IMG/VR virus record: IMGVR_UViG_3300033562_001863
Coordinates: 1-59,489 of that record
Source: a virus
Lineage: Duplodnaviria; Caudoviricetes
DNA length: 59,489 nt
Direction: 5' to 3' (one strand)
The notes beneath the pieces are model-generated. The model saw only the letters and a list, made by a program, of their open reading frames with translations. It was not told the DNA's origin and did not search any database. Both the position numbers and the translations under genes were made by a program. This document shows, piece by piece, positions 13,659 through 54,717 of this stretch (position 1 is its first letter; every line of letters starts with the position of its first letter).

Positions 13659-14098
13659 AAAAAATAATGTTTGAGGATGCTATATATACTTTGAATAAAA
13701 AGATAAAAAAATATATAGTCAAAAACAAAATACCAGTGAGAGAAATAGATAAAGGATCACCTACTTGGTCTGGATATTGTATAGTAACAAGTAGAGACAA
13801 AGAAATAGTTATCAATAACAAACAAAGTATTTTTATAAAGCCATTTACTACATTACATGAGATAGGACATTTTTTTGATGAAAACTATGCAAATGTATCT
13901 GGCATTGGTGTAATAAAAGATTTTAATCTTGAAAAAACAGCAGACAACTATATATACACTTTCTGTAGAAAAAGATGCTCTATAATAGAACTTTTTTTAT
14001 TGAAAAAAATAATAGAGAACACCTCAAAAATGAGTATAGAGTTTTCTATTTTTGAGAAGCTGTGTATTAGTGTATTGAAAAAAGTTGGAAGAGTTTAG
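13655..14098 (+). CDS. HExxH metallopeptidase-like (ImmA/IrrE-type) protein
   Basis: TLHEIGH ... E..AD. Confidence 0.55.
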   Translation: MKKIMFEDAIYTLNKKIKKYIVKNKIPVREIDKGSPTWSGYCIVTSRDKEIVINNKQSIFIKPFTTLHEIGHFFDENYANVSGIGVIKDFNLEKTADNYIYTFCRKRCSIIELFLLKKIIENTSKMSIEFSIFEKLCISVLKKVGRV

Positions 14099-14114
14099 AA
14101 CTTAATAAAAGTTC

Positions 14115-14143
14115 TTGACGAAGTTTTTACTTCGTGGTATAAT
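14115..14143 (+). promoter_or_regulatory. sigma70-type promoter with palindromic spacer
   Basis: TTGACGAAGTttttACTTCGTggTATAAT. Confidence 0.8.
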
Positions 14144-14359
14144 AATAGCACGGGGAAATAAGTTTCCCTATAAAATGTTTTTTGGTTGTTATTCACTTTA
14201 TAGAAAACAGCTACACTGAAAGGCGCTATACAAAATGGATAGCTCCATTAGTAGAAAGGCCGCTGTGTTAAGTAGGTTCGGTAGGTTTCGTAGAGTAAAA
14301 CCTTATGTAAAGCCACGTTTATTGTATCGGGCATCCTACCAAACTTTATAAGGATAAAT

Positions 14360-14791
14360 ATGAATAAAGAAATAGATGAACTATTTGATAAACTTTATAT
14401 TTATATTTATAAAAAATACTATAATACACCTTGGCCAAAGCCAGATTTCTTTAGTGAAAGAGAAGGTATCGGCATTTTTTTTGATAGGTTCAAAATGGTA
14501 GGTGGTAAAGAAATAAAAATAGATGGAATAAAGGCATTGTTAAAAGAAGATAAAATATTAAGAAAGTTAGCGTATAACACATTTTCATCAAATGCTTTTT
14601 ACGAAATAGAGAGGTGCCCAGCGAGAGATGGGTTCTTTTGTTCTTGTAATAAAATATTTGAAGTAAATAATGAAAGTCTATATTCTGGATTTGGCGGCTC
14701 TTCTTGCGATAGATACTTTAGACAAGCCGTAAGTAAAAAAGTTAAAGCTCTCAAAGCAAAAGATGTTGATCAGCTTGAGTTTGAGTTCTAA
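14360..14791 (+). CDS. hypothetical protein ending QLEFEF
   Basis: ORF; tail motif. Confidence 0.7.
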   Translation: MNKEIDELFDKLYIYIYKKYYNTPWPKPDFFSEREGIGIFFDRFKMVGGKEIKIDGIKALLKEDKILRKLAYNTFSSNAFYEIERCPARDGFFCSCNKIFEVNNESLYSGFGGSSCDRYFRQAVSKKVKALKAKDVDQLEFEF

Positions 14792-14810
14792 TAAGTTAGG
14801 GGATAACTTT

Positions 14811-15083
14811 ATGGCTAGTGATTTTTTTGTGGGTGGTAAAAAAGTAACAATGACGCTGGAAAGTTTCTCCAAGAACCCAGTTAGAAATGACTTACATATC
14901 CCAAAAAAATGTATAATGGAAATGATAGAAAAGTGTAGAAAAGAAGACTTTACAATTATTAAGGATTGCAGCAAATCTGGAAATGACTTTTGCAAGTATT
15001 TATATACCTTTGAATATAGTCCATATGTATGGCCGACAGAATGGTTTTTTGAAACAAAAAAACAGCTTGAGTTTGAGTTCTAA
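14811..15083 (+). CDS. small protein ending QLEFEF
   Basis: ATG 14811 after GGGG RBS. Confidence 0.7.
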   Translation: MASDFFVGGKKVTMTLESFSKNPVRNDLHIPKKCIMEMIEKCRKEDFTIIKDCSKSGNDFCKYLYTFEYSPYVWPTEWFFETKKQLEFEF

Positions 15084-15092
15084 CAAAACTCC

Positions 15093-15121
15093 TTTACAAA
15101 GTTTTTCAATCGTGTTATAAT
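15093..15121 (+). promoter_or_regulatory. sigma70-type promoter
   Basis: TTTACA-N17-TATAAT. Confidence 0.75.
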
Positions 15122-15370
15122 AATAGCACGAAGAAAATAAAATCCCTGAGTATATCAGGGCGTCAGTAGGAACGATACACTTGCCGTTTTGAGTGTTCTC
15201 ATTAGTTAAACAATGCTCCCGCAAAACACTAAAGCGGATATCGTCAGTGTGATAACAGATTTAGCTTATAGTAAAGCATTCCGGTATAGCACCGGAAAAG
15301 AAGTTGGGTCGAACCGCATTCTGTTAAATGTTTCCTCGTATGAGGAACAAACTTTTTCTAGGGGGCAAAT

Positions 15371-15964
15371 ATGGATTTCAAGAAGATGATGGGCGCAGAT
15401 TTCGGCAAGGTAGATGGCAAGTACGGTCTCAGGCTCACGATGCTCGGTATCGGAGTTCTAACCAAGAACGGACAGATTTCTGTCTATGACAAGACGGCCA
15501 AGACCATTACGACCGTTCCCGACGATCTCTCCATTGGAGAGCTTCCCTTCTTCGCTTTCCCTGCTGACAAGATCGAAGTAGGTGATCTTGTCATCCACAA
15601 CGGGCTTATCAAGTCCATCACAGAGATAGATGAAAGTGGCGTAATCGCCATTGACATCCTCGCCCAGCGTGAGGAAATCATCCTCGTTTCCAAGAACTTG
15701 TTCGGCTTCAAGGGCATTTCCAAGGTCATCAGCTTGTTCCCCGCAGATGGCTTCGGCTCCGGTGGTTCTCCCTTCGGTGGAGATCTTACCAAGAACCCGA
15801 TGCTGATGATGGCGCTCATGGGCGACGGCAATCTCTTCGGTGGAGATGGCGACGACAGTCTCATGACAATGCTCATGCTTTCCCAGATGGGTGGTGTAGG
15901 CGGTGGCTTTGGAGACATTGCTAAGAACCCGATGCTGATGATGATGCTTATGAAGGGTCTTTAA
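15371..15964 (+). CDS. hypothetical protein with Met/Gly-rich C-terminal repeats (NPMLMM)
   Basis: Strong C/G-ending codon bias suggests high expression. Confidence 0.75.
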   Translation: MDFKKMMGADFGKVDGKYGLRLTMLGIGVLTKNGQISVYDKTAKTITTVPDDLSIGELPFFAFPADKIEVGDLVIHNGLIKSITEIDESGVIAIDILAQREEIILVSKNLFGFKGISKVISLFPADGFGSGGSPFGGDLTKNPMLMMALMGDGNLFGGDGDDSLMTMLMLSQMGGVGGGFGDIAKNPMLMMMLMKGL

Positions 15965-15974
15965 GGAGGCCGCA

Positions 15975-16394
15975 ATGAGCACAATAAACATCAAAGGCGT
16001 TCGCTTTGAGAAAGGAGCTGGCGCTCGCATCATAAGCGAGGAACAGCTCCGCGAAAGGTCGAGCCTCGCTTCAAGCTCCAAATGGCTTGAAATGATACGC
16101 AAGTACGGTGGTAAGAAACTCAAGGTGTATGGCTACGACCCCGACACCGACAGGGTATGGATGTCCGAAGACCACAGCGATACCTACAAATGGAAGTCGT
16201 TTATGTTGGACGATGTTTTCAAGGCAAATCCTGACAGAGAAAGTGTTCACAAAGAACTACATCGCCCAGTAGTTCAAAATGTTGCCGCCGTAAAACTTGA
16301 TCCGACCACCAACAAGGTGCTGAAGAAAAATAACCGCAGCAAGATTGTCAAGTTCATGCTCCTCATGAGCTTGATGAACAACGAAAAGAAGTAG
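15975..16394 (+). CDS. hypothetical protein
   Basis: AGGAGG RBS; followed by terminator. Confidence 0.7.
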   Translation: MSTINIKGVRFEKGAGARIISEEQLRERSSLASSSKWLEMIRKYGGKKLKVYGYDPDTDRVWMSEDHSDTYKWKSFMLDDVFKANPDRESVHKELHRPVVQNVAAVKLDPTTNKVLKKNNRSKIVKFMLLMSLMNNEKK

Positions 16395-16401
16395 ATTATA
16401 A

Positions 16402-16428
16402 GCGTAGTCCTTCGGGACTACGTTTTTT
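16402..16428 (+). terminator. Rho-independent terminator
   Basis: GCGTAGTCC-TTCG-GGACTACG-T6. Confidence 0.75.
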
Positions 16429-16431
16429 CAA

Positions 16432-16502
16432 GTTCCCTTCGTCTATCGGTAGGACAACACATTCTCAGTGTGTAAAGATTGGTTCGACTCCAGTAGGGAA
16501 TA
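16432..16502 (+). tRNA. tRNA-Glu(CTC) copy 1
   Basis: Cloverleaf; anticodon arm ACACA-TTCTCAG-TGTGT. Confidence 0.85.
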
Positions 16503-16520
16503 ATAAGTCAAGGAGAATCC

Positions 16521-17381
16521 ATGAAACTATTTTGTAATAACTGTGATGGAGTTTACGATAGTTTGGATGTTAGATTTACGAAATCCTGTGACAACAACTG
16601 TGATTTTTGTATAGAAAAACAAGGTATAGATAATCTTGGTATGGCAGAGCCATCTACTCTTATAGAAAGCACAAAAAAAGCAGGAATAAAAAGTGTTCTT
16701 ATTCTGGGTGGAGAACCCTTACTTTTTATTGAAAATGTTTTAGAATATATTAAAGGTATTAGAGATTTTGCTGATACCATATACCTTACAACTTCCCTAC
16801 CTATAACTATAATGAACAATAGAAAATCTGTTGATGAAATAATAAATCTTCTCGATGGAATAAATATTTCTATACAGAGTAGCGATTGGGAAGAGAATAA
16901 CAAAATACTAAAAGCCAGTAGTGAGTACAACAGAATAGAACTTTTAAAAAATCTAAATAAAAAACATTCAGATAAAATAAGGGTTTCTATCAACTTGGTG
17001 CGAGGTGGCATTGACAGCAAAGAAAAACTTTTGAAAACCATTTCAAAGCTTGAATCTTGTGGCTGTAAAAATATCAAGATAAATGAGCTTCAAAATAGTC
17101 CTTCTTTATATGTTTCATTTGAAGACATTATGAAAATAAAAATGAAATCTCCTTACTCTCACGGTTGTTCTACAAAGATAAAAATAGACGGAGTGACTGC
17201 TGGGCTTATTCTAAAAAGAAGTTGTTTCATAGAAGAAGTAAGTAGAGAAGCCACCGTAAGTGATTTTATAAAAGCACTTGTTAAGCATTATGTACATAAC
17301 AAGAAAAATCGTTTTTCTGTTATGTATGAAAACGGAATGGTGACAAAAGGATGGGCAACAAAATGTCAAACAAAAAACTGA
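16521..17381 (+). CDS. radical SAM enzyme
   Basis: CDNNCDFC (CxxxCxxC), GGEP. Confidence 0.9.
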   Translation: MKLFCNNCDGVYDSLDVRFTKSCDNNCDFCIEKQGIDNLGMAEPSTLIESTKKAGIKSVLILGGEPLLFIENVLEYIKGIRDFADTIYLTTSLPITIMNNRKSVDEIINLLDGINISIQSSDWEENNKILKASSEYNRIELLKNLNKKHSDKIRVSINLVRGGIDSKEKLLKTISKLESCGCKNIKINELQNSPSLYVSFEDIMKIKMKSPYSHGCSTKIKIDGVTAGLILKRSCFIEEVSREATVSDFIKALVKHYVHNKKNRFSVMYENGMVTKGWATKCQTKN

Positions 17382-17542
17382 CCGATATAACAAAAAAAAT
17401 CATTTACTTTGAGGAAGAGGAAGAAGCTCCAAAAACAAAAAGTAAAAAAACTTCTGGTGGTCACTGTGGAAGCAGTGGCGGTCACTGTGGAGTTTCTGGA
17501 ACTTCTGGTCACTGTGGAAGTAGTGGCGGTCACTGCGGCTGA
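17363..17542 (+). CDS. small peptide with four GHCG repeats; candidate RiPP precursor or metal-binding peptide
   Basis: Charged leader then SGGHCG-SSGGHCG-VSGTSGHCG-SSGGHCG; overlaps the rSAM stop. Confidence 0.7.
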   Translation: MSNKKLTDITKKIIYFEEEEEAPKTKSKKTSGGHCGSSGGHCGVSGTSGHCGSSGGHCG

Positions 17543-17565
17543 ACCTAAAATACATAGGAAGAAAT

Positions 17566-17862
17566 ATGATACCAAAGATTGGCACTAAAGCAGTATGTAT
17601 AAAAGATTATCACAATGGTGGATGGCTTAACTATACTGGAACTGTGGTAGCTATCAGGGGAAGTTTTACTAAAAATGTTGGTGTTGATTTTGGCGTCAGG
17701 TCAAGGAGTGGTTACGGACATAATCTACTTTGGAACGGAGACTCTGGCGGAGATTTCTTTAAGATAAAAAATGAAACTGGATGGTGGTTTCCTGCTGATA
17801 GATTTAATGAATATTTTAGATTATTAAAAGAACCAAAAGAGCAGTTTGAGTTTGTTTTCTAA
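17566..17862 (+). CDS. small SH3-like protein ending QFEFVF
   Basis: GGW..GTVV..VGVDF..GH.L..TGWWFP family. Confidence 0.75.
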   Translation: MIPKIGTKAVCIKDYHNGGWLNYTGTVVAIRGSFTKNVGVDFGVRSRSGYGHNLLWNGDSGGDFFKIKNETGWWFPADRFNEYFRLLKEPKEQFEFVF

Positions 17863-17868
17863 AAATGC

Positions 17869-17897
17869 TTGACAAAGTTTTTTGTTCGTGTTATAAT
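17869..17897 (+). promoter_or_regulatory. sigma70-type promoter
   Basis: TTGACA-N17-TATAAT. Confidence 0.8.
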
Positions 17898-17900
17898 AAT

Positions 17901-18109
17901 ACCAGAGAGAATGAAATGGCGGAACCCAAAAAAAGAAAATATACTTTTTTGAAATAAAAAAGTTTTTCTATTGGGTAGAAAATGAAAATGCCTGTTTTCA
18001 ATGTCTCTCTCCTGCCCTCTACTGCGTCGGACTGACGAGTAAGAGAAGGCCGATGAAACCATTGTGGAGTAGTTGGCACTGGCCGGTATCATTGATACCG
18101 GCTTTTTTT
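17901..18109 (+). ncRNA. candidate structured sRNA/leader between promoter and terminator
   Basis: No plus-strand ORF; several hairpins; ends in GCCGGTATC-ATT-GATACCGGC-T7. Confidence 0.45.
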
Positions 18110-18146
18110 ATTAAACTTATTGCTTTCTCTAACAAAGGAGAAAAGA

Positions 18147-18350
18147 ATGAACCTATACCTTGCTGAAATAAAATACGAAACAAGCTATTACGAAGGTAAG
18201 ACAGAAGAACTTCAAATGATTAGATTAGTCCGTGCCGATAGTCAGGAAGAAGCCGAAGGTAAGGCTTGGCATTATATTGAAAGTAAAACAGAAGAGTATT
18301 ACAAGTACTACAGAACTCTCTCTGTAGATATATCTTCCACAATAGAATAA
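18147..18350 (+). CDS. hypothetical protein
   Basis: ATG 18147 after AGGAG. Confidence 0.65.
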   Translation: MNLYLAEIKYETSYYEGKTEELQMIRLVRADSQEEAEGKAWHYIESKTEEYYKYYRTLSVDISSTIE

Positions 18351-18360
18351 AGGAAATAAA

Positions 18361-18723
18361 ATGAGTTCATATCTTACAAATAGATTAAGTTTGCTGGCTC
18401 AACTGAAAGCAGAATCTGCTAACTGGGTTGGTTATAACAGTGCTTTGGTAGATAAAGTAGCAAGTACTTTCAAAGACGTAGCCGAAGAAGCAGACGACGC
18501 AAGAAAAGAAAGAAAAATAGTTTTTGTTTGGGTGTTATCTATTTCTTTGGCTCTTATTGTTGGTATTGGTTTTTTAAAGAACGTAATAGACAACGATAAC
18601 TGGAGATTAAAAAAAGAAGCAGAACTTACCGAAACAATCACTAAAAATATATCTACAAAATACACTGAAGTTCATTCTGGGACAATATACCAGAAAGATG
18701 GTGTCTTGTATGTAAAGGAATAA
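18361..18723 (+). CDS. hypothetical single-TM protein
   Basis: Hydrophobic IVFVWVLSISLALIVGIGF. Confidence 0.65.
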   Translation: MSSYLTNRLSLLAQLKAESANWVGYNSALVDKVASTFKDVAEEADDARKERKIVFVWVLSISLALIVGIGFLKNVIDNDNWRLKKEAELTETITKNISTKYTEVHSGTIYQKDGVLYVKE

Positions 18724-18725
18724 AA

Positions 18726-19109
18726 ATGAATAAGTATCTTCTTAAGTTTATAAAGCAAATGAAAAAAGAAACCCTCATTGGCTCTCCTTATAAAGTTAAG
18801 AAGTATGTTTCTAAGTTTTGGGGAAAATATTTTGGAACTGTGTATATCATCACAGATGCTAAACATAAAATCAGAATAGATGTTAGAAGTGAAAAGCAAA
18901 AGGATGAAATCTGGCCGGTTATTTTTATTGATAGACAAGATTGTTTTGATAAACCTGCTAAATGCCCTATCCAGCTTCCTGTTCCAAAAAACGAAAAGGA
19001 GTATGAAAAACTTTTTATGTATATTCAGCTGATACTTATAGATGATTCTTGGTATGATATAAGCAATGAATATCAAACAGAGAAGTGGGTAAAAGGATAT
19101 GGCACCTGA
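18726..19109 (+). CDS. hypothetical protein
   Basis: ORF in tightly packed run. Confidence 0.6.
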   Translation: MNKYLLKFIKQMKKETLIGSPYKVKKYVSKFWGKYFGTVYIITDAKHKIRIDVRSEKQKDEIWPVIFIDRQDCFDKPAKCPIQLPVPKNEKEYEKLFMYIQLILIDDSWYDISNEYQTEKWVKGYGT

Positions 19110-19305
19110 CAACGATATGATTTTAACTGACAGAGAAGTTCAAGCATACAAAACTATTCTGGCAATATCTAGAGATAGTGATGTCAAGAAAGTTTTAACC
19201 AAAAGATTGACTAAGCATTTACTGCAAGTGATGTTCAGGGATGTGTACAGGCAATGTAGAAAAAAGAATATGAGATTTATGAAGGAACAAAAAGATGTGT
19301 CCTAA
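19099..19305 (+). CDS. hypothetical protein
   Basis: Overlapping-coupled ORF. Confidence 0.5.
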   Translation: MAPDNDMILTDREVQAYKTILAISRDSDVKKVLTKRLTKHLLQVMFRDVYRQCRKKNMRFMKEQKDVS

Positions 19306-19573
19306 GTGGTTATACTTAGGAGTTAGATATGCGCATCATTTCTATATTGACTTTTCGGATTCAACAAATCGAGGAACGAACTTTACTTGGAAAAAGTTTC
19401 CTAATCTAGTTGTTAGATTGACTTCTGTTCATGCTCCACTCTCTTATCCTAGAGGTAATAACAAATTGTTTGTGTCATTGAGTTGTATTACTGCCTATGC
19501 AGTAGCTTATATTTTGAGCTATGAGGATATTAAAATAGAGAAGAGATTGATTGAAGTAGAAGGGGCAATATGA
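19295..19573 (+). CDS. hypothetical protein
   Basis: Overlapping-coupled ORF. Confidence 0.45.
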   Translation: MCPKWLYLGVRYAHHFYIDFSDSTNRGTNFTWKKFPNLVVRLTSVHAPLSYPRGNNKLFVSLSCITAYAVAYILSYEDIKIEKRLIEVEGAI

Positions 19574-19854
19574 TACACTTTGATTTTACAGTGAACGAGG
19601 AAGATGCTACAAATATTTTTGATTGTATAAACTCAAAAATAACTGACGACGAAGTTCAACTAAGAAAATCTATAATAGATAACGAGAAGTACTTAAAATG
19701 GTACACAACAGATTGTGACGATAGAGCGCACGTAGCAGAGCTCTACAAAGACAGTAAAGAGAAAATATCTTGGTACGAAAAAGATATAGAATATTTGAAA
19801 GATTTGAAGATAAGAATGCGCAACAAATATAGTAACAAGGAAACTTTAGAATAA
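19570..19854 (+). CDS. hypothetical protein, paralog of 29603-29818
   Basis: MxHFDFxVxxExAxxIFDC shared. Confidence 0.65.
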   Translation: MIHFDFTVNEEDATNIFDCINSKITDDEVQLRKSIIDNEKYLKWYTTDCDDRAHVAELYKDSKEKISWYEKDIEYLKDLKIRMRNKYSNKETLE

Positions 19855-19878
19855 ATAAAAGAACTAAAGCGGGCAAAA

Positions 19879-20523
19879 ATGGGTCATTATGGTAGTGATT
19901 ATGAAGACAGCTATACATCAAAATCTGCTTGGACTCTTAGAGAAGGTTGTACTCCTTCTCCTGTTATACTAATGAATGCTAGTCAAGACAAACTTCATAT
20001 TGACCTTCCTGGGAGGAAATATATTAAGCACGAAAGATTAAGGAATGAGGGTTTTGCAGTTCATCAAAAACCAAATAGTCCAAGAGATACCATTGAAAAT
20101 AATGCAAAACCAAATATAGGTATTACAGAAGATTTAGAAAGTTTTGGGCACATACGAACATGGGAGCATTTTGGAGATTTAAGCCAAGATGATTATCCCC
20201 TTCTCGATTCTCTTGTCAGTAAGATTGGTTGGGTAGTTGGTAGTGATAAGCAAGGTAGAACTCTTTATCATTATTCAGCAGAACAATGTAAACAGCTTTT
20301 GCGTGAAGCTGGCTTTTTATGTGTTAAAATAAAAGATTGTCCTTTTTGTGGAAGTAAATCTAAAGTAGTTGAGTTACAAGATTGTGGAAGTAATAATCTA
20401 ACATATGTAGTTCAGTGTGAGAATTGCAAAGCAGAAACCACTGAGTTTGCTAATCCAGATATGGCTGTTCTAGCTTGGAACAATAGAATGACAGAAGAAA
20501 ATAAGTTAAAACAAAATACTTGA
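19879..20523 (+). CDS. protein with C-terminal Lar-like zinc finger
   Basis: CPFCGS...C..C...AWNNR. Confidence 0.6.
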   Translation: MGHYGSDYEDSYTSKSAWTLREGCTPSPVILMNASQDKLHIDLPGRKYIKHERLRNEGFAVHQKPNSPRDTIENNAKPNIGITEDLESFGHIRTWEHFGDLSQDDYPLLDSLVSKIGWVVGSDKQGRTLYHYSAEQCKQLLREAGFLCVKIKDCPFCGSKSKVVELQDCGSNNLTYVVQCENCKAETTEFANPDMAVLAWNNRMTEENKLKQNT

Positions 20524-39733: not shown

Positions 39734-40069
39734 TAATGAAGAAAGAAAAAATGCTTTTTATATTAGAATGGATATATAAATCTTTAACGTTCACTAGATA
39801 TAGAAATAGAGAACTAGAAAAAGATATTGAAGATCTAATAAGAGACATTAAAAAAGATACTAAAGATTGTTGAACACATTAAAAAGAATTTAGTGGGCGA
39901 GGCCGCAAGGAGGATTGGCGGCTGAATGTACGGGACTAAAGTGGCAATCTCGATGATATATAACGCCACCACCAGGCCGACGCTGGACACTTACAACACT
40001 GGCTGAAATAACGCCGCGAGATAGGGAAGTGCTATCCGCAACTCCTTGATGCGTGAAACGGGGATTTTT

Positions 40070-40151
40070 AGGAGCGTGGCAGACCGGGTAATGTCCCTAT
40101 CTTATAAGTAGTGTGCTCGAAAGAGAGTAGGTTCGATTCCTACCGCTCCTA
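40070..40151 (+). tRNA. tRNA-Ile(TAT) with long variable arm
   Basis: AGGAGCG/CGCTCCT; loop CTTATAA. Confidence 0.7.
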
Positions 40152-40152
40152 T

Positions 40153-52023: not shown

Positions 52024-54717
52024 TTAACTGATGGTAGTTCCAGTTTTATAAACGTTAAGATTGAGCTCTATGATTTCAATGGTTCCAGTTGGAACTATCT
52101 TGATAATACCCTTCATTATGTTTTGTGCCATAACGTCGGCTGTATTTATAGAACTGTCAATAACAACCTTATACTGCTCTATACCATTATCCTGCCTTAT
52201 TGGCTCAAGGATTGAGTTAATAAGGTTAGTAGCGCTCTGCCAGCTGTCAGTGTTATTCGGCTCAAAAAGCATCGTGTTCATTGCCTGCTTAATAAGCTTC
52301 TTTGCGTATATCGTCATTCTTCTTACATTAACTCTATCTAGAGCTGATGTATTTCTCAGGGCAGTTTTCTGTCCATAAACGATAACACCTTTGCTGATAA
52401 AATTGACTATCGGATTTACACAGTTAAGGCCACCATAAAGTTCCTCACGCTCATTGAACGAAGGGGACTTTTCAAGGTCTTGAACTGACAGCACGCCTCT
52501 AGTGTCTCCAGCTGGAGCATACCAAGGATTGTAAAGCCTATCAACCTCAAGAAGCTTAGCAGCCATAAACACAGACGGTGGGCACCAAACGTAAGCTTTG
52601 TTCTCACTGTCATATTCTTTGAGCCAAGGCCAATAAACAGCAGCGTAAGAAGAAGTAACAGCTGAAGTCCTTACAAACTTACCATTGTGCCAGTTTTTAA
52701 CCTGGAGGTAAGTGTAACCCATAGGCGGATCAACCAAATAAATAAAGTCAGCTCTATTTTCAGCAAGAGCTATAGCCGCATCCTGAACTATCTGGGACGT
52801 ATTATCTGGAGTGATAAGAATGTGGAAATTGTAAAGTTCGTCGTTTGCCAAATCGCCAGAGGTAGAAAGGGCATTAACAAACAGATCTTCTCCTCCGATA
52901 GATGGAATACCATCAGTTCCAATCATGTAGTCGTATGAACCAATAGAGTTATTTATATCACCATAAGAAACGTCGGTTGAACCATCGTTAGCTTTTCCTA
53001 AATTATAGGTTCCGTCTGGGAAATCTACTTTTCCATCTCCAGTAGTATCTACAGTATCAAACTTAACCCACTCAGAACCACCCTCTTCAACTGAGACATT
53101 TATAACTTTCTCTATAAAGTTATCATCTGCTATGGTGAGAGATATGTTTCCAAAAGTCTCTTGTAGCTCTCCATCATAATAAACTTCAACAGTATAAATA
53201 TCTTCATCTGTCAAAGCATTGACAGTGGTACTTTTTACTACTGATATTCTGGATGTTGAACTACCAGTCTCTAAGCTGTCTATGATTACTTTATCAGAAG
53301 TATCTGATGTAACAGCAGGTTCTCCGGTTTCTGGGTCATCAACAAGCAACATAGTTGTTAAGCTGCTTCCAACTGTTCCAGTAACAACGCTAGGAGCTGT
53401 GGTTGTATTGCTGGTGAATCTTATTTTTCTTGTTGCACTGCTTCTGGAAACAGTATAACCAGTTATTGCTAGTCTGCCTAAGTTAGCGGCATCAACTGTT
53501 CCAAATAAAGTTATTAAACTTGTTCCATTTATTGAGGTATCGTTGATAGCTAAAGTAACATCTCCAGTCTTGGATTCTCCAAGGGTTAATCTAACCTTAA
53601 GAGTATTTGGATTTTGTTCAGCTGAAACTATGCCAGCCACTATTCCTGACTGACCAGGTTCTGTTATTTCACTGCCCTCTGTTACAAGAGCCCTTAATAT
53701 GTTCTCAGATCCTTCAACAACAGATTCAGGAATACTATTAACTCCAACAAAAGCAGAACTGCCCATAGCAGTTGAAACAAATAGTAAGTTACCACCTACA
53801 TGATAACACCTTGCCGCTATCTTCTGAGTAATCAAGGCATTATTTATTAGAGATACTGCTCCATTAACATCAACTGATGTTGGAGTTGGAATATATACTT
53901 CAGTGAATAAACTGTCGGTAGATACTGTCTTTATGAAAAGCTTGTATCCTGTATGCCCATCTCCACCTATAGTTATAGTTCCAGCTTCTCCATCTAAAGC
54001 CCATGATGTATATCCTCTTGTTCCACTAGTTATAGCTTCATTTATTTTTGTGGCTATATTAGAAAGACTGTCCGTGCTTGAAAGCTGGAGCATTATTTCT
54101 TGGTTATTTGATGAGTTTGAATATATATTAGCTCCACCAACGAGTATGTTCATTCCATAAATAGTTGAGCCATTTATTGAAACAGCTCCAGAAGAAAACT
54201 CTTGGAAGCTTCTAGTTACTCCAAAACCACTTTCTATCTGTGAATAGATATTATCCATATACCATCCACCAGAAGCAGGTGATGATAGATAAATCGGAGC
54301 TTCTGATCCAGATGCTCCAACTTTAAATGAATAAACTTTACCATTAGTAAAACCAGCTGTGCCTACAGGAACATCACTACTTCTTGTAAATTCAGTGTAT
54401 CCATTTATCTGATCTTTTGTATTGTTTATAACCCTTCTTGATGAAAGAGCCATATCACCACCATCTATCTTAGCCACTCTAGTAAACACTACTTGGTTTC
54501 CTTGCTTAAAAGCATTGATGATAGCTAGATAAGAGTACGGTATCCTCGAGCAATATCCAAAAATCTTTTTAAAACTTTTGAGAGAAGTTACCATAGTAGG
54601 TACTCCAATAGGTCCTTTAGTAGCGTATCCTACCACTGCAAGCACAGTTTCTGAGCTTGTCACTGTATAAGTAGATAAGTCTTTTTCTATAAGCGTTACG
54701 CTTGGTGACTTTGCCAT
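52024..54717 (-). CDS. contractile tail sheath protein with large inserted domains
   Basis: N-terminal SP.V...E.DLS..G.A.KGP; C-terminal YWPW, PPS, W.APAG..RG, GQKT..SALDRVNVRR, FEPN. Confidence 0.9.
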   Translation of the reverse strand: MAKSPSVTLIEKDLSTYTVTSSETVLAVVGYATKGPIGVPTMVTSLKSFKKIFGYCSRIPYSYLAIINAFKQGNQVVFTRVAKIDGGDMALSSRRVINNTKDQINGYTEFTRSSDVPVGTAGFTNGKVYSFKVGASGSEAPIYLSSPASGGWYMDNIYSQIESGFGVTRSFQEFSSGAVSINGSTIYGMNILVGGANIYSNSSNNQEIMLQLSSTDSLSNIATKINEAITSGTRGYTSWALDGEAGTITIGGDGHTGYKLFIKTVSTDSLFTEVYIPTPTSVDVNGAVSLINNALITQKIAARCYHVGGNLLFVSTAMGSSAFVGVNSIPESVVEGSENILRALVTEGSEITEPGQSGIVAGIVSAEQNPNTLKVRLTLGESKTGDVTLAINDTSINGTSLITLFGTVDAANLGRLAITGYTVSRSSATRKIRFTSNTTTAPSVVTGTVGSSLTTMLLVDDPETGEPAVTSDTSDKVIIDSLETGSSTSRISVVKSTTVNALTDEDIYTVEVYYDGELQETFGNISLTIADDNFIEKVINVSVEEGGSEWVKFDTVDTTGDGKVDFPDGTYNLGKANDGSTDVSYGDINNSIGSYDYMIGTDGIPSIGGEDLFVNALSTSGDLANDELYNFHILITPDNTSQIVQDAAIALAENRADFIYLVDPPMGYTYLQVKNWHNGKFVRTSAVTSSYAAVYWPWLKEYDSENKAYVWCPPSVFMAAKLLEVDRLYNPWYAPAGDTRGVLSVQDLEKSPSFNEREELYGGLNCVNPIVNFISKGVIVYGQKTALRNTSALDRVNVRRMTIYAKKLIKQAMNTMLFEPNNTDSWQSATNLINSILEPIRQDNGIEQYKVVIDSSINTADVMAQNIMKGIIKIVPTGTIEIIELNLNVYKTGTTIS

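Follow-up and report, generated by a model that had tools for sequence, protein, structure and literature searches.

What links a radical S-adenosylmethionine (radical SAM, rSAM) enzyme of a phage to a short peptide that ends in four Gly-His-Cys-Gly units and whose gene overlaps its own? The question is raised by the virus record IMGVR_UViG_3300033562_001863, analysed here over its full 59,489 nucleotides (nt; the window), in which an earlier note had proposed, from the letters alone, a candidate viral peptide made by ribosomes and modified after translation (a RiPP) at positions 16521-17542. The analysis described below leads to a system of an rSAM enzyme and a cognate ribosomal peptide that appears to be novel in its domains, in its predicted leader recognition, in its motif, in its occurrence as fused and split architectures and in its viral carriage.

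The rSAM enzyme and its partner peptide

The layout of the pair, as first proposed, proved correct in coordinates and motifs: an rSAM open reading frame (ORF) overlaps a 59-amino-acid (aa) ORF with a GHCG core at 17453-17539. The pair has the following features.

16521-17381, plus strand: rSAM enzyme gene, 286 aa, stop TGA, match to PF04055
16542-16544, plus strand: Cys8 (NSCDG motif), first extra invariant cysteine
16587-16610, plus strand: codons of C23-x3-C27-x2-C30, ligands of the SAM-binding [4Fe-4S] cluster
17166-17168, plus strand: Cys216 (HGC motif), second extra invariant cysteine
17223-17225, plus strand: Cys235 (KRSCF motif), third extra invariant cysteine, directly preceding the leader-docking segment
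17226-17288, plus strand: residues 236-256 including helix 246-258, predicted leader-docking surface with the invariant D248 (complex model and AlphaFold2 helix)
17363-17542, plus strand: partner peptide gene, 59 aa from ATG 17363, stop TGA at 17540-17542
17369-17413, plus strand: leader, residues 3-17, NKKLTDITKKIIYFE, with the family motif [IL]TK[IL]x[KR] (alignment and confident model contacts)
17411-17452, plus strand: charged linker EEEEEAPKTKSKKT, read from the sequence; similar Lys/Pro/Ser-rich linkers occur in fused tails
17453-17539, plus strand: core of four G-H-C-G units with Cys35, 42, 51 and 58 of the 59-aa form

The 286-aa protein belongs to the rSAM superfamily, since it carries the CX3CX2C motif (CDNNCDFC) and a Radical_SAM (PF04055) match above the Pfam gathering score (E 1.1e-11, 45.6 bits vs a cut-off of 29.5); GGEP is present as well. 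The three cluster ligands C23, C27 and C30 are invariant in 20/20 aligned homologues and in 28/28 proteins of a sister clade with fused tails that is described below. Three further cysteines, C8, C216 and C235, complete a set of six that is invariant in the 20-sequence alignment and, again, across the 28 proteins of the fused clade. The extra cysteines noticed earlier were thus confirmed in these three positions, whereas C5 of the N-terminal CNNC is not invariant among the 20 homologues. About 100 residues follow the rSAM core, and C216 and C235 are the only conserved cysteines in them. We infer that C8, C216 and C235 act as ligands of a second, auxiliary Fe-S cluster with one open coordination site.

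The AlphaFold2 (AF2) model of the enzyme (predicted local distance difference test, pLDDT, 89.4; predicted template modelling score, pTM, 0.87) is a partial TIM barrel. Its best PDB neighbours in a Foldseek search were viperin, MoaA (TM-score 0.63), SuiB, BlsE, CteB, SkfB, the PFL activase and EpeE, at 12-16% identity, which reflects the common rSAM barrel. No SPASM (PF13186), PqqD/RiPP recognition element (RRE; PF05402) or Mob_synth_C (PF06463) domain was found at E<=1 in the 286-aa protein with Pfam, and the statement of the earlier note that SPASM and RRE are absent therefore holds at the Pfam level.

The layout of the peptide is MSNKKLTDITKKIIYF-EEEEEAPKTKSKKT-SGGHCG-SSGGHCG-VSGTSGHCG-SSGGHCG, and the window copy of the leader motif region reads LTDITKKIIYF. 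AAAGGA is located 11 nt upstream of the ATG at 17363. An alternative ATG at 17351 would give a 63-aa peptide (17351-17542), so that the overlap with the 3' end of the rSAM gene ranges from 19 nt (59-aa form) to 31 nt (63-aa form). That codons vary from repeat to repeat holds only weakly: 3 positions, all synonymous, distinguish the two 21-nt SSGGHCG units, but the codons GGT CAC TGT GGA are identical in 3/4 GHCG units. The near-identical repeat DNA therefore looks like a recent DNA duplication. Among the 1669 stop-to-stop segments of at least 20 aa in the window, 7 have at least two His-adjacent Cys in their last 70 residues; the partner peptide is the only one of these with four units and the only one with the leader motif.

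The two genes are coupled across the family

The loci that were fetched comprise 14 from IMG/VR, 66 from metagenomes, 8 from genomes and 4 phage records. The IMG/VR loci came from an alignment-based scan, and none of them was confirmed by a single-protein scan of viral contigs. A complete rSAM gene is present in 75 fetched loci, which together with the window make 76; these group into 47 clusters when 90% identity is required and into 37 at 70%. All stop-to-stop frames were scanned for at least two Cys with a His neighbour in the last 70 residues. In 31/37 clusters such a Cys-His ORF accompanies the enzyme gene, as a same-strand neighbour no more than 300 nt away or as an in-frame fusion; it is found downstream in 21 clusters, directly upstream in 8 and as an in-frame C-terminal fusion in 2 (L061, L088). 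The downstream peptide ORFs mostly overlap the rSAM stop by 6-31 nt, like that of the window, and one of the 31 clusters (L056) has an atypical, longer ORF. Of the six clusters that remain, one (L067) has a candidate peptide 319 nt downstream of its rSAM gene; the others are that of the Lak phages, a clade of 13 near-identical loci, L070, L089 and L090, all of which are taken up below. The same scan is satisfied by 13 of the 2853 segments of at least 20 aa that lie beyond the 300-nt zone (0.46%), and 2 of these 13 look like genuine members of the peptide family. The pairing of rSAM gene and peptide is therefore not a matter of chance. The linkage of a precursor gene to the gene of a modifying enzyme, as expected of a RiPP, is found by adjacency or fusion in these 31/37 clusters.

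Gene order in this family is not fixed. A quick maximum-likelihood tree of the 47 enzymes gave, by parsimony, 7 changes each for the downstream and the upstream state, and its well-supported branches force at least two changes of order; the two fusions arose separately. That the genes have stayed adjacent while their order changed repeatedly argues strongly for a functional link. Moreover, no other conserved gene family was found beside the rSAM gene in 35 representative loci, the second apparent family being the antisense frame of the rSAM gene itself. Taken together, the two genes very probably form a dedicated pair. The earlier note had suggested looking for GHCG-like peptides or fusions around rSAM homologues, and had named their lack as the outcome that would speak against its proposal; both forms were found, side by side or fused in 31/37 clusters and as fusions in 21/203 proteins, and the homologues do not lack the peptide.

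One locus deviates in the pair itself. On the IMG/VR contig L017 (2501-3499), which groups with the clade of L014, L015 and L018, the 3' end of the rSAM gene is altered and the peptide ORF is missing; this may be a deletion or an assembly error.

Separate peptides and fused tails

The 28 separate peptides that were aligned begin with a stretch that is basic and amphipathic, M..[IL][IL]TK[IL]x[KR]hh; a spacer comes next, whose length varies from a few residues to about 120, and the third part, at the C-terminus, has two invariant Cys columns. The leader motif [IL]TK[IL]x[KR] is common to all 28. A conserved leader and a variable core, the second feature expected of a RiPP, are thus both present in these peptides, the core being formed by the C-terminal CH/HC units. 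The conserved unit is a Cys beside a His, flanked by Gly or Ser, in the order CH or HC. The GHCG repeat described at first is therefore correct for the window, with its four units, but as a family feature it has to be widened to 1 to 6 copies of Cys beside His, whichever of the two comes first. Two copies are commonest, and peptides with 3, 4 or up to 6 units are those of L057/L087, L020, L025, L026, L028, L032 and the window. Neighbouring units stand between one residue (ACHGCHG) and about 20 residues apart, and close relatives differ by in-frame insertions or deletions between units (GSGG, GVG, GNGSG in L036-L042). In one exception (L021) the frame continues for about 60 residues beyond the units. 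Members distant from the window have Gly-Cys units without His; in the Lak phages, for instance, a downstream protein of 153-166 aa has a similar N-terminal leader motif (ILDNITKYI) and the tail SGGCG...SGGC.

In other members the units are part of the enzyme. We examined 266 family proteins, 203 of which have a C-terminal anchor, Y-x-N-G-x(3-8)-W. Beyond the anchor, 21/203 have a tail of 19-100 residues in which 2-5 Cys are His-adjacent, 4/203 have a tail with one His-adjacent Cys, and 6/203 have a tail with at least 2 Cys but fewer than 2 of them His-adjacent (e.g., SSGGCSSGGCR). The remaining anchored proteins end at a median of 5 residues past the anchor. All 21 Cys-His fusions, which are those of the sister clade, are found among more distant homologues (P0141-P0256). 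In three clusters at 90% identity the HC/CH pair is invariant and the adjoining residues vary.

The fused forms do not have the leader motif. Their segment from the last conserved Cys to the anchor (YxNG) is Pro-rich and shorter than in the other proteins, with a median of 23 vs 33 aa when rows of near-identical members are included. In the AF2 model of one fused protein (P0240) no helix is present in this segment, whereas the window protein has the helix 246-258. The tail of P0240 (residues 263-280) is predicted to be disordered, with a pLDDT of 31-46 and no tail Cys placed confidently, which would suggest a flexible arm and not a folded metal domain.

A predicted docking site for the leader

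The complex of the window enzyme and its peptide was modelled from the enzyme alignment, two 4Fe-4S clusters, SAM and the peptide alignment. The interface score ipSAE was 0.80, 0.73 and 0.75 (median 0.75), and the best of three controls gave 0.00. In the calibration of the tool the mark was reached by 58/80 solved complexes and by 2/110 mismatched pairs, counts that apply only roughly here, where own alignments were used and ligands were included. The runs share at least 21% of contacts. The pLDDT of the partner in the complex is at least 45, and the fold of the peptide itself is uncertain because this value is only about 45.

Confident contacts connect residues 3-17 of the peptide with residues 236-237, 243-246, 248-249, 252-253 and 255-256 of the enzyme. 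The invariant D248 and the near-invariant F236 contact the conserved Thr10 of the leader. The model supports, but does not prove, a binding of the leader to the C-terminal helix of the enzyme. That leader and docking helix are both missing from the fused forms would fit the logic of substrate delivery.

Breadth and nearest relatives of the enzyme family

The rSAM family is mostly phage-borne and consists of stand-alone enzymes. A word-indexed search gave 360 homologues of the window enzyme at E<=1e-3, the best of which have 50-58% identity over proteins of about 285 aa and lie on contigs of up to 363 kb. With a profile built from 20 members, 1877 cluster representatives were retrieved at E<=1e-3, the number falling to 304 when E<=1e-10 is required and to 148 at E<=1e-30 (clusters at 50% identity). 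A homologue is present in 15/15 records of Lak megaphages, at 32% identity, and in the nearest ESM Atlas clusters Viruses/Uroviricota make up 80-100% of the few taxon-labelled members. By comparison, one genome per species from 185,579 species gave only 8 family loci, all on contigs of metagenome-assembled genomes. The carriers range from gut Lak megaphages to phages of digesters and microbial mats and are mainly large and uncultivated. Neither the peptides nor the enzymes, split or fused, reach the cut-off of any NCBIfam model. A full-text literature search, whose coverage left most subscription journals outside, returned no paper on the family or on phage-encoded rSAM peptides.

In sequence and fold, viperin, with its prokaryotic counterpart pVip, and MoaA are the closest named relatives (TM-score 0.52 for viperin and 0.63 for MoaA). 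The PADLOC pVip model matches the window enzyme at E 2.6e-14 (51 bits), and a profile search of PDB sequences found viperin-like chains at E 1.9e-10, over residues 15-188 only. MoaA has a second cluster that is held by three Cys. Unlike these relatives, the phage enzyme has an unrelated C-terminal third, and neither viperin/pVip nor MoaA is known to have a cognate peptide. The best NCBIfam matches fall far short of their cut-offs. Identity with MoaA was rejected (TIGR02666, 40.2 bits vs 284, and no PF06463), as was identity with viperin/pVip (NF038283, viperin_w_prok, 38.8 bits vs 180; TIGR04278, 27.5 vs 450), for which the PDB matches end at about residue 188.

The His-Xaa-Ser system is similar in that HxsC, a small rSAM enzyme without SPASM, is linked to HxsA, a peptide of short His-containing repeats, and the HxsC model weakly matches 9/20 family members (best E 2.1e-8). 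In contrast, the phage motif is Cys-His and not His-x-Ser. HxsC (TIGR03977) was rejected as an identity, the window protein scoring 24 bits vs 267.9 and having no HxsA/B/D neighbours.

Substrate or working part of the enzyme?

On balance, the peptide is probably a leader-guided substrate, with the enzyme acting on the Cys of each CH/HC unit. In a first step, the peptide's N-terminal helix (LTDITKKIIYF), which is basic and amphipathic, would dock on the C-terminal helix of the enzyme (about residues 236-256), a docking that would stand in for the RRE/PqqD domain used by most RiPP enzymes. The flexible charged linker would then feed the four Gly-His-Cys-Gly units successively into the active site, where the 5'-deoxyadenosyl radical would attack each Cys-His unit. 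The likeliest product would be a C-S bond or another change at Cys, and the open iron of the putative second cluster may bind the thiolate. In the sister clade the same units would be presented from the C-terminus of the enzyme, so that the tether replaces the leader.

The substrate reading is favoured because the units behave like independent modules that can be counted and that vary in copy number and spacing, because leader and docking helix are present or absent together, and because the fused tail is flexible and distant members keep the Cys but not the His. As to the chemistry we can only guess whether a C-S link is formed inside the unit, the Cys is changed or a thiolate is held on an open iron. 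The rSAM enzymes include some that make S-C(alpha) links between adjacent residues (thiomorpholine rings), and Cys-His thioethers occur in copper proteins; with these precedents such products are chemically reasonable.

Several observations weigh against a substrate role. The Cys-His core is left unplaced by the complex model, whose confident contacts are limited to the leader, so that the model is silent on which atom is attacked. The order of CH and HC flips within and between peptides, CH...HC being common, a freedom that is unusual where an enzyme recognizes a motif and readily understood for a set of metal ligands. Fusion is frequent and would limit each enzyme molecule to a single substrate, as would be expected of an accessory arm more than of a natural product. 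Viperin and MoaA, the nearest relatives in sequence and structure, act on nucleotides and not on peptides. A conserved protease, exporter, immunity gene or second enzyme was not found within 1.5-3 kb in the 35 representative loci. Finally, in a clade of 13 near-identical loci a typical peptide was found in one alone (L044, 724 nt upstream), the other 12 having none within 1.5 kb, and no Cys-His peptide was found in the clusters L070, L089 and L090.

As to the frequency of fusion, borosins provide an architectural precedent, since fused enzyme-core proteins as well as split pairs of enzyme and precursor are described within one family (10.1101/2021.12.24.474128, PMC8429565). By this analogy, fusion is compatible with a RiPP. 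The borosin enzyme is an alpha-N-methyltransferase, whose chemistry is unrelated, and the resemblance is one of architecture and not of homology.

The strongest alternative, which we consider less probable but serious, is that the Cys-His peptide or tail serves the enzyme as a functional component, an accessory arm, and that the true substrate is another molecule, perhaps a nucleotide. The earlier note had itself named a His/Cys carrier of metal or Fe-S as an alternative, and the frequent fusions and the free order of CH and HC lend some weight to it. The Cys and His might ligate a labile metal or an Fe-S centre, for instance by completing or feeding the C8/C216/C235 cluster; they might also shuttle reducing equivalents or hydrogen atoms, or serve as a sulfur donor that is consumed in use. 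Indeed, there are three and not four extra invariant Cys, which leaves room for an outside ligand, and the commonest form with two units offers 2 Cys and 2 His in interchangeable CH/HC order, as would fit a ligand set. The common C-terminal fusion (21/203), the nucleotide-acting closest relatives (pVip at E 2.6e-14, viperin-like PDB chains at E 1.9e-10, MoaA at TM-score 0.63) and the lack of conserved tailoring or export genes nearby also favour an arm. However, spacings of 1 to about 20 residues and 1-6 copies are ill-suited to one defined site, and the Lak phages and some fused variants have Gly-Cys units without any His. The fused tail is predicted to be disordered, and AF2 places none of its Cys with confidence. 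A conserved leader and a docking helix that are jointly lost in fused forms would match the delivery of a substrate better than an arm, and the matches to viperin and MoaA are far below the family cut-offs and cover the rSAM core only.

It is very improbable that the pair is an ordinary sactipeptide or ranthipeptide system, with a SPASM/twitch rSAM enzyme, that happens to be carried by a phage. As in the SPASM/twitch maturases CteB, SkfB and SuiB, an rSAM gene adjoins that of a short leader-core peptide whose core contains Cys and whose motif units vary in number, extra conserved Cys suggest an auxiliary cluster, and the rSAM barrel is shared; indeed, SuiB, CteB and SkfB are among the Foldseek matches, with E values of 7e-9 to 4e-7. 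These matches, however, have TM-scores of 0.5-0.58 at 14-16% identity and thus cover the rSAM barrel only. The phage enzyme is of only 286 aa and has neither SPASM nor RRE/PqqD at E<=1, and only 2 conserved Cys lie in the stretch of about 100 residues after its core. Its leader is predicted to bind to a C-terminal helix, its unit is Cys-His, its carriers are mostly viral and its fusions are frequent. NCBIfam matches to sactipeptide and ranthipeptide maturases are negligible (e.g., StsB, 18.8 bits vs a cut-off of 625). The comparison with sacti- and ranthipeptides made in the earlier note therefore breaks down at the defining SPASM domain. Membership in the SPASM/twitch group was rejected, with no PF13186, no PqqD domain, no other conserved partner gene in the 35 representative loci and NCBIfam scores far below the cut-offs.

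Least credible of all is that the small ORF goes untranslated, being no more than a frame in a Gly/Ser-rich DNA repeat, and is unconnected with the enzyme, for although its four units are nearly identical in DNA and the peptide is known here from sequence alone, the peptide recurs beside or fused to homologues of 28-58% identity, in very different DNA and with in-frame insertions or deletions, against a background rate of 0.46%.

Significance

To our knowledge, rSAM peptide chemistry is known almost solely from bacterial gene clusters. The system described here is a compact two-gene or one-gene version of small size (286 + 59 residues) that is carried mainly by phages. If the peptide is the substrate, the system would provide a new mode of leader recognition, a new Cys-His target motif and modified peptides of viral origin. 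As an accessory arm, the peptide would represent a new way for an rSAM enzyme to bring along a tail of its own that is consumed or binds metal. With 148 clusters at E<=1e-30, the size of the family suffices for comparative work.

A more far-reaching proposal, which as a whole we regard as rather unlikely, is that these loci constitute the first class of virus-encoded rSAM-modified peptides. Such peptides would be read by a helix-helix contact without SPASM or RRE, would undergo radical chemistry on the Cys-His pairs of n repeats, presented on a separate peptide or a self-fused tail, and would supply the huge phages of anoxic habitats with a redox- or metal-active peptide, or a peptide-derived cofactor, during infection. 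As a guess at the products, one may think of a C-S link, inside the motif, to the alpha-carbon or the imidazole of His, or of a thiohistidine-like residue.

Locus context

The window is phage DNA, as seen from a tail sheath gene at 52027-54717 on the minus strand (phrog_23, E 2e-60); it also codes for two RNA ligases, a head-tail adaptor and a peptidase, and has 22 tRNA genes. A megablast search of 14000-20000 against the phage collection gave zero matches. The immediate 5' context of the pair is as follows.

16403-16428, plus strand: terminator-like hairpin with an 8-bp stem, a TTCG loop and a T6 run, read by eye
16432-16502, plus strand: tRNA-Glu (anticodon CTC), directly 5' of the rSAM gene; a neighbour and not a conserved part
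16510-16515, plus strand: Shine-Dalgarno-like AAGGAG, 5 nt before the rSAM ATG

The putative terminator at 16403-16428 would close the upstream gene at 15975-16394 and mark the start of a unit of tRNA-Glu, rSAM gene and peptide gene, and is mentioned as context only. It is absent from the list of a pattern scan for terminators. A scan of 15900-18200 against shuffled sequences gave no excess of promoter-like sites (7 vs 5.7) or of terminator-like sites (1 vs 1.1). The position of the pair directly after a tRNA-Glu gene, mentioned in the earlier note, is real in the window but is not a feature of the family: a tRNA gene is present in the fetched flanks of only 5/30 related loci, and a link of tRNA-Glu to the system was therefore dropped.

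Among the 22 tRNA genes, tRNA-Glu(CTC) is present in six copies, at 16432, 27321, 27730, 28152, 28828 and 29217 (plus strand), and a tRNA-Ile with the anticodon TAT lies at 40069-40152. A transfer-messenger RNA is also coded 1-2 kb upstream of the pair on the phage contigs L009 (589-967) and L015 (1383-1789).

The ORF that directly follows the peptide gene (17566-17862, plus strand) carries the C-terminal motif Q[LYF]EF.F (e.g., KQLEFEF, EQFEFVF). This motif is present in 15/414 stop-to-stop segments of at least 50 aa in the window, in small proteins of 58-165 aa whose ORFs end, on the plus strand, at 177, 9479, 9723, 11000, 12437, 13658, 14791, 15083, 17862, 21884, 25616, 30696, 40557, 41242 and 41525. 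A C-terminal tag common to these proteins, or a DNA element conserved where genes end, may account for it. Upstream of the pair, a 197-aa ORF (15371-15964, plus strand) without a Pfam match has a Met/Gly-rich C-terminal half with repeated NPMLMMxLM motifs. Just past the ORF 17566-17862, a perfect match to a sigma-70-type promoter (TTGACA, 17 nt, TATAAT, with TG) lies at 17869-17897 on the plus strand, and downstream of it a terminator-like hairpin is found at 18081-18103.

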